From: a virus
Virus record (IMG/VR): IMGVR_UViG_3300032236_000765
Span: 1-64,000 of that record
Strand: one strand, 5' to 3'
DNA: 64,000 nucleotides
The notes beneath the pieces are model-generated. The model made no database searches. It was given only the letters and a program-made list of their open reading frames with translations, and was not told the origin of the DNA. Both the position numbers and the translations under genes were made by a program. Below are positions 10,796-50,490 of the stretch, in pieces (position 1 is the stretch's first letter; each line of letters begins with the position of its first letter).

Positions 10796-11851
10796 TTAAC
10801 GACTGAACCACTTGTACCAAATGAGCGCAGTCTTGCTTGTATATTTAGTCAAACTTTTCTGATTTAGCTTGACGTTGAGCCAAGGAAGGCGATATGCAAA
10901 CTCAAGCTCATCTCTGATACGGTCACTATCAGTCGGGTCTGACTTTCCCATCTTCAACCAAGGAATTTCAGAAGTACCGATCAAGGGAACGCCTTGACTG
11001 ATCAAATCAGCTCCTACGATGTTGAATGTCTCACTGAAGTTACACTGCATACCGAGGTCCATCTTAGCACAGGTCTTGAGGAATTCCTCTCTAGGAGCCC
11101 ATGTATGATTCACTAGGCGATGGCCTCTTTCATATAGATGGGTGAAAAACGCTGTTACGTTTTGCGCAACAGGTTGCCCTTGCATTTCAATTCTGCCTGA
11201 ATTGATATGAAAGCGCACTCGCTTATTCTGACTCTCTGCAAAATCTACCGCTGCAATAGCTTGAAGCAAGTGATTCTTCAACGGACGAACTGCACCGAAG
11301 CAACCGATATCGATATAGTCCTTGTTACGATTTAACTTCTTTCGTTGATATTCTTGTGGATAGTAATTCGGTAGATAAATCACTTTTTGATTTACCTGCT
11401 TTTCGGTCCAGCCATGCATGGATTTTAGATAGACCTGTGTTTCACGTAGCATTCTAGGTGCATTGACTGCAATTACAACTTTGTCCTGTCGTGAATATTC
11501 CCCGATCCAGTTCATTGCCGAACCTTCACCAGCCATGAATGGCATTTCACTATGTAGACGGATGATCCAGGTTACATCAGGATGCAACTTTCTTAGGATA
11601 TTAAACTTAGTAGGAACGACCCATAGTGCTTCAACAATGGCATGTGTGGGTCTATATTTTGTAACTACTCTATCAATACAATTATTATCTATTACGACTT
11701 CTAGATGGGATTCGATTCCCATGTCATTTAGCATATGATGCACGAATGAAGCAGAATTATATAGACCTGTACTCAGCCCTATATGACTGCTATCTCTTGC
11801 AATGTTGTAGTCATCTTTTCTTTTTAATATAAACAATACACGTGTTTTCAC
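10796..11851 (-). CDS. GT-B fold glycosyltransferase (GT4-like)
   Basis: IGCFGAVRPLKN, SETFNIVGAD...GVP. Confidence 0.8.
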   Translation of the reverse strand: MKTRVLFILKRKDDYNIARDSSHIGLSTGLYNSASFVHHMLNDMGIESHLEVVIDNNCIDRVVTKYRPTHAIVEALWVVPTKFNILRKLHPDVTWIIRLHSEMPFMAGEGSAMNWIGEYSRQDKVVIAVNAPRMLRETQVYLKSMHGWTEKQVNQKVIYLPNYYPQEYQRKKLNRNKDYIDIGCFGAVRPLKNHLLQAIAAVDFAESQNKRVRFHINSGRIEMQGQPVAQNVTAFFTHLYERGHRLVNHTWAPREEFLKTCAKMDLGMQCNFSETFNIVGADLISQGVPLIGTSEIPWLKMGKSDPTDSDRIRDELEFAYRLPWLNVKLNQKSLTKYTSKTALIWYKWFSR

Positions 11852-12631: not shown

Positions 12632-12716
12632 TGGTGGGGCATCCCGGGATCGAACCAGGCGTGTCATAAGACGGCGGATTTACAGTCCGCTGCATCACCG
12701 TTGATGCTTCTACCCC
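12632..12716 (-). tRNA. tRNA-Tyr(GTA)
   Basis: Loop CTGTAAA, V-arm, A73; G7-A66 mismatch. Confidence 0.9.
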
Positions 12717-13405: not shown

Positions 13406-13479
13406 TGGCACCAGTGCAGGGAGTTGAACCCCGGCTTGCGGTTTTGGAGACCGTCGTGCTACCGTAACACTTCACTGGT
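13406..13479 (-). tRNA. tRNA-Trp(CCA)
   Basis: Loop CTCCAAA, G73. Confidence 0.92.
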
Positions 13480-16409: not shown

Positions 16410-16483
16410 TGGTGCCCTATGACAGAATCGAACTGCCGCTCACTGATTACGAAACAGTTGTTCTACCATTTAACTAATCATGG
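16410..16483 (-). pseudogene. Degenerate tRNA-Thr(CGT)
   Basis: Loop TTCGTAA, T-arm and CCA intact, but 5' acceptor strand CCATGAT does not pair with ATAGGGC. Confidence 0.75.
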
Positions 16484-17398: not shown

Positions 17399-17558
17399 AA
17401 AATACGGTTTTTATCTACTTCACGAAGACTCGGGCGAATAGCGTATGCAACTCAATCATGCCTTACTCGCTTGCTCTTGGTAGCCCGGGCGTAACCGAAA
17501 ACCGGTAAATTGCTAGCCTAATACAAGACTAGCAAACTGAAAATATTTATATAGGTAT

Positions 17559-17611
17559 GCCAGCGAAAGATAATCTTTCATCCTTAATATGAGTAAGGAT
17601 CTTTCGCTGGC
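17559..17611. other. Long hairpin immediately 3' of small ORF
   Basis: GCCAGCGAAAGAT/ATCTTTCGCTGGC 13-bp stem with inner ATCCTTA/TAAGGAT. Confidence 0.55.
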
Positions 17612-17799
17612 TATATACCGATGATCTTTACTATGAGATTGAAAGGCCAAACATGTTCCCACAGAAAATGCTCTAGTGGATAGCTGATTGTTATACCTAT
17701 CCAGAACCTATAATCAGTGATTAGATTAGTACAATGATTGTAACATGTGGTCAAGAAGCCTGTTCTACTATAATGGTAGTGTGGTTCATTATTTTTCAT
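17611..17799 (-). CDS. Small membrane-associated hypothetical protein
   Basis: Start revised to MKNNEPH because the longer ORF overlaps RNA genes. Confidence 0.6.
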   Translation of the reverse strand: MKNNEPHYHYSRTGFLTTCYNHCTNLITDYRFWIGITISYPLEHFLWEHVWPFNLIVKIIGI

Positions 17800-17820
17800 G
17801 TTTTCTCTCTTTTTAATAGA

Positions 17821-17892
17821 TGGCGGCCCTGATGATTTTTCTCTCGTTGACACACTACCCATGATTGGAAGATGGTGGTGCGAGACAGGGCC
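17821..17892 (-). ncRNA. CCA-ended non-cloverleaf tRNA-like RNA
   Basis: Perfect acceptor stem GGCCCTG/CAGGGCC plus GCCA; no D- or T-arm. Confidence 0.6.
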
Positions 17893-17900
17893 ATAAACTT

Positions 17901-17975
17901 TGGTGCGCGATGCAGGAGTTGAACCTACCACCTCTTCCATGTCAAGGAAGCGTTCTACCGATGAACTAATCGCGC
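17901..17975 (-). tRNA. tRNA-Val(GAC)
   Basis: Loop TTGACAT, A73. Confidence 0.95.
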
Positions 17976-18124: not shown

Positions 18125-18595
18125 TTAGTTCTTCACATACTTGTTGTATGCAGCGATCCAATCAGTTGAGATTTCTTTCTGAGCAGTTGCCATATCGATC
18201 TGACCTGAACAAATCATCTTGTGTAACTTGTTTTCTAATGCATCTTTCAAGTGTGCATTATAAGGAGATGATGTGTATGACTGTGGCCAGAGATTCTTGA
18301 CATCATTTGCACCGCCTAGTTCAAGTGAGATCAAGTGATCTATCTCAAACTTGTCAGACTTAGGATCGATCTTGTATTCAGCAAAAACTTGCTTCTTCAC
18401 AGATTCAGGTACGTTACGGACCTTCTTGCCCTGTGCGTCTGTGCCGCTGGTGTAATTCGGTACACATACTACTGCTTTTGTTGCAGCAGGATTGACTACA
18501 CCAGGGGTCAACACAGGATCAGGCTTCTGAGGAATGTCAGCAGCATATGCAGAAACAGAAATTGATAGTAAAGCTAATGTTAATAATTTTTTCAT
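18125..18595 (-). CDS. Secreted His-Me finger (HNH-like) protein
   Basis: Sec signal peptide (AYA/AD); EIDHLISLELGGAND.KNLWPQ. Confidence 0.75.
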   Translation of the reverse strand: MKKLLTLALLSISVSAYAADIPQKPDPVLTPGVVNPAATKAVVCVPNYTSGTDAQGKKVRNVPESVKKQVFAEYKIDPKSDKFEIDHLISLELGGANDVKNLWPQSYTSSPYNAHLKDALENKLHKMICSGQIDMATAQKEISTDWIAAYNKYVKN

Positions 18596-47838: not shown

Positions 47839-50490
47839 TTAGTATTGTGTAGTACCGGGCAAAATTGTTTGCTGTTCAAACAATACATAGAAATCTTTAG
47901 CATCGACTGGTGTGGGTGTTGGATCAGCACTAGGCAATGCAGTCCAAGCCGGAGGACTAAGGGTGTTATCAAAGTTATAAGTAGCACTCTTGTTCACGCT
48001 GAATCTGTCGATCTTAAAATTGATCAGATTTAATGCCTGCTTCTCGCCTATCGGATTTAACCAATTATTCTGAATCTGATACTGAATGTATTGCGCATAA
48101 CTCACTTCAGTTCCATCAGGTAATGTAGTCAATCCTGGCTTGCAATAAGCGATGACCCAAGCCGGAGTGAATCCTAATGTAGATCCATTTCTCTGTTGAC
48201 TCGTCATCCAGAGGGGCAATATTTCATAATTCTGATTTTGTCCTAATACATCTACAACTTGTTGGCGCATATTTGGAAGTGAGTTTGGATATACTGTTCT
48301 TACATAACCAGGTGTTCTACTAGTATAAAGCAATTCACCATTTGGAGTATTATTCCAAGAAGTAAAGATCGTATCTTCACTATCATACCAAGGACCTAAA
48401 TATAGGGGTATCGGGCGTTGCCAGTATATTTGTTTAGCGACGCTCTCACCTTGCGGAATGATAATATTAGACTGAGATTCATATTCATACTTACCCTCAA
48501 TCTCATTGTAGTTCACGAGATTATCATAGACTTCACTGTAAACAACTTCATACAAAATCTCTCCGGTATAATCATTACGTGCAATAGCAGTCTTGATCTC
48601 TCCTAAAGTGAGTTGTCTCCAATAATGATTCTTTGTGATAGCTGCAAGATACTGATCTATGCCACTCGCATTGATACCATATGCATGTTCATATATGACG
48701 CTAGTCGCTTTACCAAAGAAAATATCATCTGAACGATACAGATAATCAGGTGGAATAAGCGTATCATTATCCAGAAGTGTAGCAAGTAAGTTTCTATCTG
48801 CTATACTAGGAGTGCATTTGATATAGAGAATGTCAGTAGGATTTGGAAACTGTTGATACACAGTCAATGTAAATGTCTGTGATGATGAGATTGAAGCAAA
48901 TTGCGTCGAAAAAGCCTGAACTGTAAATGTAAAGGTTGCAGATGCATCTGGATTCTGAAAAGTATTCTCAGGTTGAAAGGCTACAATTCCTGATAATTCC
49001 CCGTTTGGTAATAGGGTTAGATTGGGAGGAAGTGTACCGGATGTCAATCTATATTGCAAGTCTATATCACTTGTTGCTTTTACATAAGCCATACTAGGTA
49101 AACCGTTAAAAACAGTTCCTAGGTCAGCAGGACTTATCCAAACGATGTCACCGTTTATATTAGTGATCACCCTGAATACAAAAGTAAAGGTGGGAGAAGA
49201 TATATTAGTCACTGTTCCTAATACGACTTTAGTTACTGATACGCTAAAAGTAAATTCACTAACTGTATTAGGACTGATGACAGGATTACCTGTGATCCAT
49301 CCAGTAGTAGCATTTCCTGTCAACCCTAGCGGCAAAGAACTAAAATTATATTGTAAGTCATTACCATCAAAATCATGACCTAATATACTAAAATTAAATT
49401 TATTATTGCTGCTTATAGTACCAATGAATGCAGGTTGATTAGGTGGATAAGTTGTTCCATTGCCGTTAGCTGGCAATACATAATATCCAAATTCTGTGAT
49501 ATTGCGATCTAGTTGAAAAGTCTCAGGGCGAGTATTATAGATTGCAGGAATTCTGGTATTTGGTCCGTATCCAGGACCACCCTGTTGTACTGGAGTATTT
49601 TGATTTACTACAGAGATAGAATAGCTTTGAATATCACTACCTAATGCACTATCTAATTTAAGCACGAAGTTAAAAGTTTTACTAGTAGGTTGTCCTTGGG
49701 TTATACTAGGTAATAGTATAGGCATATAACCTGAACTATCAATGAATGTAACGATCGGACCATTCACAGTATTTGATACAGTAAATTGTGTTCCGTTGAT
49801 CACAGAAGCAATATAGTATGTTTGATTGGGGACGATTCCTCCGAAGGAAGTACCTGAAAAAACGATAGGTCTTCCAGCAATAAAATTTGCCGTATTCAGA
49901 CAAGTGATAATGTTACTGCTGACTGCGGTAGCAACAGTAGATACAGGTGATAGATTCACGTTGACGAGAGGCGGCTGAGCATATCCCCTTATCAATCCAT
50001 ATTCATTTATTTCTAATCCGGGTGGTAGTTCACCCGCAACTACTCTAATTATGACAGGATTCGTAGAGATAGGATTGTTATACTCGATTGGAATCTCGAC
50101 CCAAGTACTATCTAGAAAACTATTAGGCTGTGTGTTAGACCATGGATTAGGATTAGGAATAGGACCCGGAGTTGTAGTGAAAGTAGGATGAGCGATGCCT
50201 GATATGGTCATACTAAATGTATTATCTCGAATATTCTGATAGTTATCAGTTGCTCGTACTACAAAGGTATATGTTGTTGCTGCGACTACCGCTGCTGGAA
50301 CTCCAGATATCAATCCATTGACATTCATCGTCACGCCTGAAGGTAAACCTCCGCTAATGATTTGATATGATATCGATACTGCTGGTAAAACCGCAGATGC
50401 AGATAATTGGAAAACAACAGGCTTCAATGAGTTTCCTGATGGAAACGATCCGATAGAGCCAGTTGGTGTATTCCAGATTGGTTGTGCCAT
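47839..50490 (-). CDS. Structural protein with repeated Ig-like domains (baseplate-associated)
   Basis: Repeated SG.LP.G.T....G.ISG.P...YTF.V.A. Confidence 0.75.
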   Translation of the reverse strand: MAQPIWNTPTGSIGSFPSGNSLKPVVFQLSASAVLPAVSISYQIISGGLPSGVTMNVNGLISGVPAAVVAATTYTFVVRATDNYQNIRDNTFSMTISGIAHPTFTTTPGPIPNPNPWSNTQPNSFLDSTWVEIPIEYNNPISTNPVIIRVVAGELPPGLEINEYGLIRGYAQPPLVNVNLSPVSTVATAVSSNIITCLNTANFIAGRPIVFSGTSFGGIVPNQTYYIASVINGTQFTVSNTVNGPIVTFIDSSGYMPILLPSITQGQPTSKTFNFVLKLDSALGSDIQSYSISVVNQNTPVQQGGPGYGPNTRIPAIYNTRPETFQLDRNITEFGYYVLPANGNGTTYPPNQPAFIGTISSNNKFNFSILGHDFDGNDLQYNFSSLPLGLTGNATTGWITGNPVISPNTVSEFTFSVSVTKVVLGTVTNISSPTFTFVFRVITNINGDIVWISPADLGTVFNGLPSMAYVKATSDIDLQYRLTSGTLPPNLTLLPNGELSGIVAFQPENTFQNPDASATFTFTVQAFSTQFASISSSQTFTLTVYQQFPNPTDILYIKCTPSIADRNLLATLLDNDTLIPPDYLYRSDDIFFGKATSVIYEHAYGINASGIDQYLAAITKNHYWRQLTLGEIKTAIARNDYTGEILYEVVYSEVYDNLVNYNEIEGKYEYESQSNIIIPQGESVAKQIYWQRPIPLYLGPWYDSEDTIFTSWNNTPNGELLYTSRTPGYVRTVYPNSLPNMRQQVVDVLGQNQNYEILPLWMTSQQRNGSTLGFTPAWVIAYCKPGLTTLPDGTEVSYAQYIQYQIQNNWLNPIGEKQALNLINFKIDRFSVNKSATYNFDNTLSPPAWTALPSADPTPTPVDAKDFYVLFEQQTILPGTTQY

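Follow-up and report, generated by a model that had tools for sequence, protein, structure and literature searches.

The DNA analysed here, referred to as the window, comprises positions 1 to 64,000 (64,000 nucleotides, nt) of the 75-kb IMG/VR virus record IMGVR_UViG_3300032236_000765, whose completeness is estimated at 22%. A transfer RNA (tRNA) array runs along the minus strand of the window from 18858 down to 7812 and contains 31 tRNAs, of which 29 are called by ARAGORN and two more by Rfam (31 at gathering score), with HNH endonuclease genes and small open reading frames (ORFs) interspersed among them. All 31 tRNAs carry an encoded CCA and most have a T at position -1. Directly downstream of tRNA-Val(GAC) in this array lies a short element with the ends of a tRNA and the body of a rod, which is a real and apparently undescribed tRNA look-alike and is the subject of this analysis.

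A preliminary description of the locus had reported a 72-nt RNA located 8 nt past tRNA-Val(GAC), with the ends GGCCCTG/CAGGGCC-G-CCA and an interior built from the pairings TCTCG/CGAGA, CAC/GTG and CCAT/ATGG around the loop CTTCCAATC; all of these features are found on the minus strand (Table 1; RNA position n of the element is window position 17893 - n). The minimum free energy fold of the element is a bulged rod of -24.4 kcal/mol (z = -2.69), equalled or bettered by 3 of 200 shuffled sequences. A loose pattern, consisting of a 7-bp stem with at most one G-U pair followed by N-CCA within a span of 45-100, occurs 31 times in the window outside the tRNAs compared with 27.6 times in shuffles and is thus uninformative by itself. 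A strict pattern, with Watson-Crick pairs only and at least five G-C pairs, occurs once in the window, at the element, where 0.25 occurrences are expected per shuffled window. The element stands on the tRNA strand and in tRNA register, and its U at -1 and encoded CCA match the array tRNAs. The decisive point against chance is nevertheless the conservation of the element, with covariation, in related phages. Two other readings of the locus were rejected, namely a coding one (the 109-aa ORF at 17611-17940 overlaps tRNA-Val, and the lengths of family members differ by 6, 7 or 9 nt) and a terminator (no T run follows the element).

As had been anticipated in the preliminary description, the standard tools are silent on the element. 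ARAGORN did not call it in the run on the window, nor did the mitochondrial modes of the program (-mt, -mtx) at normal thresholds, and at a lowered threshold these modes produce calls with inconsistent anticodon assignments. Rfam yields nothing on the element at gathering score, nor at E <= 10 on a 501-nt slice, the Tymo_tRNA-like and YrlA matches of that scan falling on tRNA-Val and tRNA-His.

Relatives were sought by several routes. When IMG/VR was scanned with exact and near-exact patterns of the element and of the tRNA-Val 3' end, no match and no near-identical relative came up, and the neighbouring 156-aa ORF (18125-18595), when used as an anchor, led to 12 loci that are not syntenic tRNA arrays, so that it was set aside as a mobile small gene. 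The 351-aa protein encoded within the array (10796-11851) gave access to 80 loci; the phage contigs on which these lie form a large group, and several measure 330-360 kb. Searches of these 80 loci with the element by blastn and nhmmer returned noise only, and the nearest of the loci hold tRNA arrays with matching gene order. In a complete relative of 360,683 bp (G001), tRNA-Val(GAC) is followed, with tRNA-like spacing, by four tandem CCA-ending mini-genes, the third of which (L104:4012-4077) has its loop motif, a block AGAGAAAAAT and the terminal GCCA in common with the window element and differs from it by double changes at four of the seven acceptor pairs. The family was recognised by eye in this array; covariance models, R1 and R2, were then built and applied to loci preselected by pattern scans, which covered IMG/VR, JGI metagenomes and 185,579 prokaryote genomes.

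Eight distinct orthologues and one tandem paralogue were identified in this way in syntenic arrays of related phage contigs of approximately 330-360 kb (Table 1). The spacer AAGTTTAT between tRNA-Val and the element is identical in six lineages (the window, L120, G018/L150, L136/L141, L167 and L174), despite the differing acceptor stems that flank it. In L199, gaps of 7 nt separate the element from another mini-RNA upstream and from tRNA-Pro(GGG) downstream. The paralogue, the fourth mini-gene of G001 (el4), has lost the loop motif and kept the ends and the bulge. The preliminary description had proposed that an ordinary tRNA in the corresponding slot of relatives would speak for random decay; no such tRNA was found, and the occupied slots hold the same rod.

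All orthologues share a T at -1, a 7-bp acceptor stem and a discriminator G. A second stem of 4-6 bp (UCUYG/CRAGA) follows directly after the acceptor on the 5' strand and, since the two abut without a gap, they form one 12-bp helix. The 3' strand is interrupted between them by an A-rich bulge (G, A5-7, N2-3) of about 8-10 nt in every orthologue, and in the covariance-model alignment of the orthologues this bulge together with the last bases of stem 2 makes up the invariant block AGAGAAAAA. At the far end, an apical stem of 4-5 bp closes a 9-nt loop, N-W-U-C-C-A-A-W-N, the UCCAA core of which is invariant in all eight orthologues. Of the segments between stem 2 and the apical stem, the 5' one varies across the family, with pairing not kept column-wise, and the 3' one accounts, according to the alignments, for the difference in length between members (72 nt versus 63-66 nt). 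Compared with a canonical tRNA, the acceptor stem of 7 bp, the discriminator and the CCA are present, the acceptor being 100% paired family-wide. A D arm (a hairpin with G18 G19) and a T arm (a 5-bp stem with a T-psi-C loop) are absent from every member, which bears out an early remark that the D-loop GG and a TTC T-loop are lacking, and positions 8-12 are paired with 47-51 in their place. Instead of the 5-bp stem and 7-nt loop of an anticodon arm, all orthologues have in common a stem of 4 bp and a loop of 9 nt; a fifth apical pair is possible in several members, and the bases flanking the loop, equivalent to 31 and 39, are C/C, A/A or C/A and never a standard pair in any member.

The covariation check suggested in the preliminary description was run on two alignments, one of nine sequences guided by the covariance model and one of the eight orthologues made with MAFFT, which is blind to structure. 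In the first, pairing extends to 98.6% of cells, with double changes in 11 of 16 pairs, and drops to 37-58% when the partners are slid by 1-3 columns. Because such an alignment is biased toward its model, the count was repeated on the plain MAFFT alignment. There, the acceptor and apical stems are 100% paired, with double compensatory changes in 10 of their 11 pairs (6/7 in the acceptor and 4/4 in the apical stem), and none of 500 shuffles matches the observed pairing or covariation, figures which, for eight partly related sequences, are not to be taken as probabilities. Stem 2 is paired in 95% of cells of the model-guided alignment, its fourth pair being C-G or U-A and read as A-U in L199. 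It is one column off in the MAFFT alignment, on which RNAalifold recovers the acceptor stem only, so that support for stem 2 comes from the model-guided alignment and from single-sequence folds, seven of nine of which give the same architecture with stem 2 included. The predicted non-cloverleaf fold is thus shown by covariation. As the acceptor stems differ at six of seven pairs, the orthologues are not recent copies of one sequence, and the invariant unpaired blocks (UCCAA and AGAGAAAAA) indicate that the sequence is under selection too.

These results bear directly on the possibility that the element is a non-functional relic, either a decayed tRNA or a chance hairpin beside a tRNA. The silence of the tRNA finders and Rfam, the loss of CCA in one lineage (GCTA) and the limitation of the family to one phage clade would fit a relic, which we nevertheless consider very improbable and largely refuted by the covariation: the compensatory changes in 10 of the 11 acceptor and apical pairs were counted on an alignment blind to structure, the unpaired blocks are invariant, and a window would be expected to contain the strict pattern 0.25 times. 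Furthermore, the elements of the window and L120 differ at only 3 of 72 positions although their flanks have been replaced, the tRNA-Val acceptor stems differing throughout and the downstream DNA being unalignable. None of the 31 array tRNAs detectably resembles the element, and descent from any of them was rejected, the best local alignments scoring 14-16, below the shuffled mean of 18.1. Chance and decay are effectively excluded as the origin of the element, in line with the early judgement that a decayed tRNA is unlikely.

What decay looks like in this array may be seen at 16410-16483 (minus), where a tRNA-Thr(CGU)-like gene is matched by Rfam as a cloverleaf (41.8 bits) and not called by ARAGORN. 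Its acceptor strands, CCATGAT (5') and ATAGGGC (3'), have four of seven pairs left, relatives carry an intact Thr(CGT) ahead of Ile(TAT), and the gene is probably a decaying tRNA. Its pattern, with the cloverleaf retained and the acceptor stem broken, is the opposite of that of the element, a conserved rod with compensatory changes.

As far as searched, the family is restricted to one clade of uncultured jumbo phages, probably of freshwater. No passing element was found in about 100 other related phage records, and none of the 12 pattern matches in the 185,579 prokaryote genomes passes R2. R2 matches in G038, G070 and G012 (E 0.02-0.6) were dismissed as noise, the one in G038 lying in coding sequence with no tRNAs near, and L108 was discarded as a chance match of the first strict motif scan. 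Among cultured phages (INPHARED), the query was matched through its tRNA-Val half only. The best matches of tRNA-Val(GAC) there are the tRNA-Val of Sinorhizobium phage Phosso and Agrobacterium phage Atu_ph07 (76-77% identity), both of which are alphaproteobacterial jumbo phages, and R2 found nothing in the whole genomes of these two.

Several features of the surroundings of the element were recorded alongside. In G001 and L199, CCA-ending mini-RNAs of 56-65 nt, here called type A, with discriminator U or C and the shared block AGTGACGAA, stand just upstream of the rod element with tRNA-like spacing (L104:3838-3904 and L104:3949-4004 in G001; about 70 nt upstream of 13317, minus strand, in L199). 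In the window, the motif AGTGACGAA occurs at chance level only and this family is absent. About 40 nt downstream of the element in G018 (L112:1430-1480), there is a conserved sigma-70-like promoter, TTGACA, 17 nt, TACATT, with counterparts in L136, L150, L167 and L174, and transcription of a new unit seems to begin directly behind the element in lineages of the G018 type. In the window, a large, nearly perfect inverted repeat (17540-17610, minus; arms of about 16 bp, ...TATAGCCAGCGAAAGAT / ATCTTTCGCTGGCATA...) lies in the 420 nt, poor in ORFs, that separate the element from tRNA-Phe; it might serve in processing or termination or belong to a further RNA.

A 12-bp terminal helix with a 3' GCCA is what bacterial RNase P measures, its substrates having paired ends of about 12 stacked bp, a 3' RCCA and, preferably, U at -1. 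Judged by its sequence, the element presents the features of such a substrate: a contiguous helix of 7+5 bp, GCCA and a T at -1. It would be co-transcribed with the tRNA operon, cleavage by RNase P after U-1 would yield the 5' end, with the spacer AAGTTTAT as the likely 5' leader that is cut off, and the 3' end would be trimmed to the encoded GCCA like those of the neighbouring tRNAs. A sigma-70-like site is present at 18972-18945, upstream of tRNA-Thr; such sites are no commoner than chance in the region. The element may have been derived from, or built upon, the plan of a tRNA. At 12 bp, its terminal helix is as long as the stacked acceptor and T arms of a tRNA, but the 5' strand runs through unbroken and the A-rich bulge interrupts the 3' strand, the mirror image of the tRNA arrangement; the anticodon-like hairpin departs from the far end of the helix and not from its middle. 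The overall shape could be either a straight rod or one bent at the bulge.

The identity of bacterial tRNA-Trp is marked mainly by two features, G73 and a CCA anticodon. In the family, the discriminator is G in all eight orthologues (A in el4), and the invariant UCCAA reads as U33-C34-C35-A36-A37 of a putative anticodon loop. Since G73 and a loop CCA are the marks of tRNA-Trp, the element is taken here as a tRNA(Trp) look-alike, and the reading that we favour, with confidence that stands about midway, is that of a selected small RNA which would mature like a tRNA and act as a non-decoding mimic with tRNA-Trp-like marks (the U-CCA-A loop and G73). A canonical tRNA-Trp(CCA) with G73 is encoded in the window at 13406-13479 and two such genes are present in L199. 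In G000, G001 and G018, no synthetase of the TrpRS/TyrRS class was found, nor a CCA-adding enzyme (PF01743) or RtcB, and there are no tRNA-related enzymes among ten large window ORFs checked. With a canonical tRNA-Trp(CCA) present and no phage enzyme of the TrpRS class or for CCA addition, a decoding role would be redundant. The mimic would instead engage a tRNA-binding factor, most plausibly a host defence nuclease that targets tRNAs or the machinery of Trp charging or sensing, and would thereby protect or tune the real tRNA pool. The term tRNA mimic had been used already in the preliminary description and is a fair name for the class, given the tRNA ends, the lack of D and T arms and the conservation. 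The specific roles attached to it there, as a decoy for toxins that target tRNAs, an aminoacylated minihelix or a primer, are not supported by the sequence comparisons made here, and nothing was seen that points to a primer. Somewhat more specifically, though below an even chance, it is possible that the rod is part of the tRNA economy either as a non-cloverleaf tRNA charged by TrpRS or as an RNA decoy trapping a host defence nuclease directed at tRNA-Trp; in the decoy variant, the enlarged anticodon-like loop and the GCCA end may form the trap.

The gene content of the carriers provides weak context for the favoured reading. In T4, Rnl1 mends tRNAs whose anticodon loop has been cleaved by a nuclease of the host, and RNA ligases of the T4 Rnl1 type (PF09511) are encoded in G001 (48956-49552, 120.9 bits) and G018 (289451-290032, 108.5 bits), that is, in both near-complete genomes with the element, compared with one of five related genomes without it.

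A number of points weigh against the tRNA-Trp look-alike. The resemblance to tRNA-Trp consists of five invariant loop bases and G73, and because UCCAA also fits the generic T-loop/U-turn pattern (U..RA), the loop need not mimic an anticodon at all. It has 9 nt and not 7, the first acceptor pair is G1-C72 where the phage's own tRNA-Trp has A1-U72, and in one lineage (L136/L141/L171) the GCCA end has become GCTA. The eight orthologues come from one phage clade and include several close kin, so that shared ancestry inflates the covariation statistics, and the correlation with Rnl1 is drawn from few, related genomes.

An alternative is that the element is a working, aminoacylated tRNA-Trp of hairpin type, a natural non-cloverleaf adaptor that would decode UGG, or UGA through its odd body. 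G73, the U-CCA-A loop, the acceptor stem and the CCA are all there, and the terminal helix has the 12 bp of the acceptor/T stack that is gauged by EF-Tu and RNase P. A D-armless mini-tRNA has been found to be accepted without adaptation by HisRS, EF-Tu and the ribosome of E. coli (PMC11551756), and armless hairpin-like tRNAs are functional in nematode mitochondria (PMC12221289), where, however, T-armless and armless tRNAs depend on a co-evolved EF-Tu (PMC12221289). We regard this alternative as distinctly unlikely. With one or two canonical tRNA-Trp(CCA) genes already in these phages, it is unneeded for decoding, no synthetase of the TrpRS/TyrRS class accompanies it in the three genomes named above, its loop has 9 nt with 31/39 never paired, and the T arm and elbow are absent. 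The long ORFs of the window are open under table 11, so that no sign of UGA recoding is seen, which counts against decoding of UGA.

Among known RNAs, the closest in kind are the RNAC and RNAD of phage T4 (species 1 and 2 RNA), whose small non-tRNA genes likewise lie within a cluster of phage tRNA genes, adjoining a tRNA on the same strand, and whose role is still unknown (PMC9697503). As to kind, the element is best placed among these stable, tRNA-like products of phage tRNA clusters. At 139 and 119 nt, the T4 RNAs are longer than the element (63-72 nt), and rnaC has a hairpin resembling a T arm, whereas the element lacks a T arm, encodes its GCCA and presents an anticodon-like loop. Homology was rejected: R2 gives no match in the T4 region with filters off (best 9.6 bits, E 0.49), and folds and sizes differ. 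Like T4 RNAC/RNAD, the element may be a regulatory or structural small RNA without tRNA function, whose tRNA ends merely provide for excision and stability and which would act by pairing through its loop (for example with a target containing UUGGA) or through a protein bound to the A-rich bulge. Stable non-tRNA RNAs of this kind are on record in T4 (rnaC and rnaD; PMC9697503), the best-conserved parts of the element (the loop core and AGAGAAAAA) are single-stranded, as a seed or protein-binding site would be, and several different CCA-ending mini-RNAs are clustered in G001 and L199. We nonetheless judge this explanation to be on the unlikely side: no target was identified, el4 has no loop motif and yet keeps the ends and the bulge, and the occurrence of G73 together with a CCA triplet placed exactly at U33-NNN-A37 would be a coincidence.

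The canonical tRNA-Trp(CCA) (RF00005) and the element have in common the 7-bp acceptor, G73, the CCA end, the U-CCA-A core and the gene spacing; the element differs in that it lacks both the D and the T arm and has a loop of 9 nt and G1-C72 instead of A1-U72. The armless mitochondrial tRNAs of Romanomermis culicivorax and other Enoplea are 42-50 nt long, with short connectors on both strands and 7-nt anticodon loops, receive their CCA post-transcriptionally and require a co-evolved EF-Tu and CCA enzyme. In contrast, the element has no connector on the 5' strand and an A-rich bulge of 9-10 nt on the 3' strand, is extended by a further stem of 5 bp and closes with a loop of 9 nt; its CCA is encoded, canonical tRNAs occur alongside it, and on account of its connectors and loop it was not assigned to that class. 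We know of no anticodon-like loop and no discriminator-CCA design in the 4.5S RNA precursor or the M3 RNA of phage phi80. These two resemble the element as long irregular hairpins with ends that are recognised like an acceptor stem (PMC4919913), and the rod-shaped 4.5S RNA is a known RNase P substrate (PMC4919913), but they have no sequence or family relation to the element and are located outside tRNA arrays. The bacterial and phage YrlA Y RNAs and the viral tRNA-like structures also imitate parts of tRNA without decoding; YrlA and the Tymovirus tRNA-like structure, however, imitate the L-shape or the T arm and elbow, and the element matches neither Rfam model. No account of an element of this type turned up in searches of the full-text literature. 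In a survey of structured RNAs in IMG/VR, tRNA-like candidates are mentioned solely as overlapping ARAGORN calls (PMC10690425), and a paper of 2024 states that all known bacterial tRNAs are cloverleaves (PMC11551756).

Table 1. The rod element and its parts in the window, followed by the other members of the family
Feature	Window position	Strand	Length (nt)	Remarks
tRNA-Val(GAC)	17901..17975	minus		ARAGORN and Rfam (63.6 bits); upstream partner of the rod element in 6/8 lineages
Spacer AAGTTTAT	17893..17900	minus	8	separates the CCA of tRNA-Val(GAC) from G1 of the element; last base T at -1
Whole tRNA-like gene	17821..17892	minus	72	covariance models R1, 90.1 bits, and R2, 85.5 bits
Acceptor stem, 5' strand (nt 1-7, GGCCCTG)	17886..17892	minus		pairs with 17825-17831
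Stem 2, 5' strand (nt 8-12, TCTCG)	17881..17885	minus		pairs with 17842-17846
5' middle segment (nt 13-17, CACCA)	17876..17880	minus		GTG in 17847-17858 is a possible pairing partner of CAC
Apical stem, 5' strand (nt 18-21, CCAT)	17872..17875	minus		pairs with 17859-17862
Apical loop CTTCCAATC	17863..17871	minus	9	core TCCAA at 17865-17869
Apical stem, 3' strand (nt 31-34, ATGG)	17859..17862	minus		pairs with 17872-17875
3' middle segment (nt 35-46)	17847..17858	minus	12	5-7 nt in relatives
Stem 2, 3' strand (nt 47-51, CGAGA)	17842..17846	minus		pairs with 17881-17885
A-rich bulge GAAAAATCAT (nt 52-61)	17832..17841	minus		on the 3' strand between stem 2 and acceptor
Acceptor stem, 3' strand (nt 62-68, CAGGGCC)	17825..17831	minus		pairs with 17886-17892
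Discriminator G (17824) and encoded CCA (17823-17821)	17821..17824	minus		GCCA in 7/8 orthologues
Orthologue G018, identical copy L150			66	
Orthologue L120			72	69/72 identical to the window element
Orthologue L136 = L141 = L171			65	3' end GCTA
Orthologue L167			65	GCCA kept; close kin of the GCTA lineage
Orthologue L174			66	GCCA kept; close kin of the GCTA lineage
Orthologue L199 = L235			63	
Paralogue G001 el4			62	ACCA end

Other unusual tRNA-like genes were observed in these and related arrays. In the window, tRNA-Tyr(GTA) (12632-12716, minus), the sole Tyr tRNA of the array, has a long variable arm and gives a weak Rfam match (32.1 bits) and no ARAGORN call. Between tRNA-Ser(GGA) and tRNA-Pro(TGG) of G001 (L104:4440-4590), about 150 nt are closed by the 9-bp helix GCAGTTTAG/CTAAACTGC and include a perfect T arm, GCGGGTTCGAGTCCCGC, with no CCA and no ARAGORN or Rfam call; this may be a tRNA-like RNA with a large insert. 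Three CCA-ending genes of 66-69 nt (L057:4212-4278, L028:8092-8157 and L091:1643-1711), on which ARAGORN is silent, have Gly-type ends (GCGG.../GCAG...) with U as discriminator; their anticodon-type hairpin is long, their D arm is reduced or missing, and they form a family distinct from the rod. A CCA-ending 73-nt rod precedes tRNA-Thr(CGT) in a 353-kb phage (L055:9581-9653), and a 95-nt non-cloverleaf CCA-ending element is conserved with substitutions in two phage lineages (L050:8551-8645, minus, and L076:12236-12330).

The tRNA arrays of phages are currently read mainly as spares against host defences that cleave tRNAs and as a remedy for codon mismatch. The family described here means that such arrays also hold conserved genes which have only the ends of a tRNA and an anticodon-like loop and which are skipped by standard annotators. 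If the element is a decoy, it would represent a new, RNA-only counter-defence inside a tRNA array and a handle for finding the nuclease that is targeted. If it is charged, it would break the rule that tRNAs in bacterial-type translation are cloverleaves only, being a non-cloverleaf adaptor outside mitochondria, and would offer a compact natural scaffold for the design of orthogonal tRNAs. In either case, with its 12-bp helix and a strand break on the 'wrong' side, it provides a defined substrate for probing what RNase P, CCA-end enzymes, TrpRS and EF-Tu really require, and it may inform the 50-year-old question of the function of RNAs of the T4 RNAC/RNAD type.

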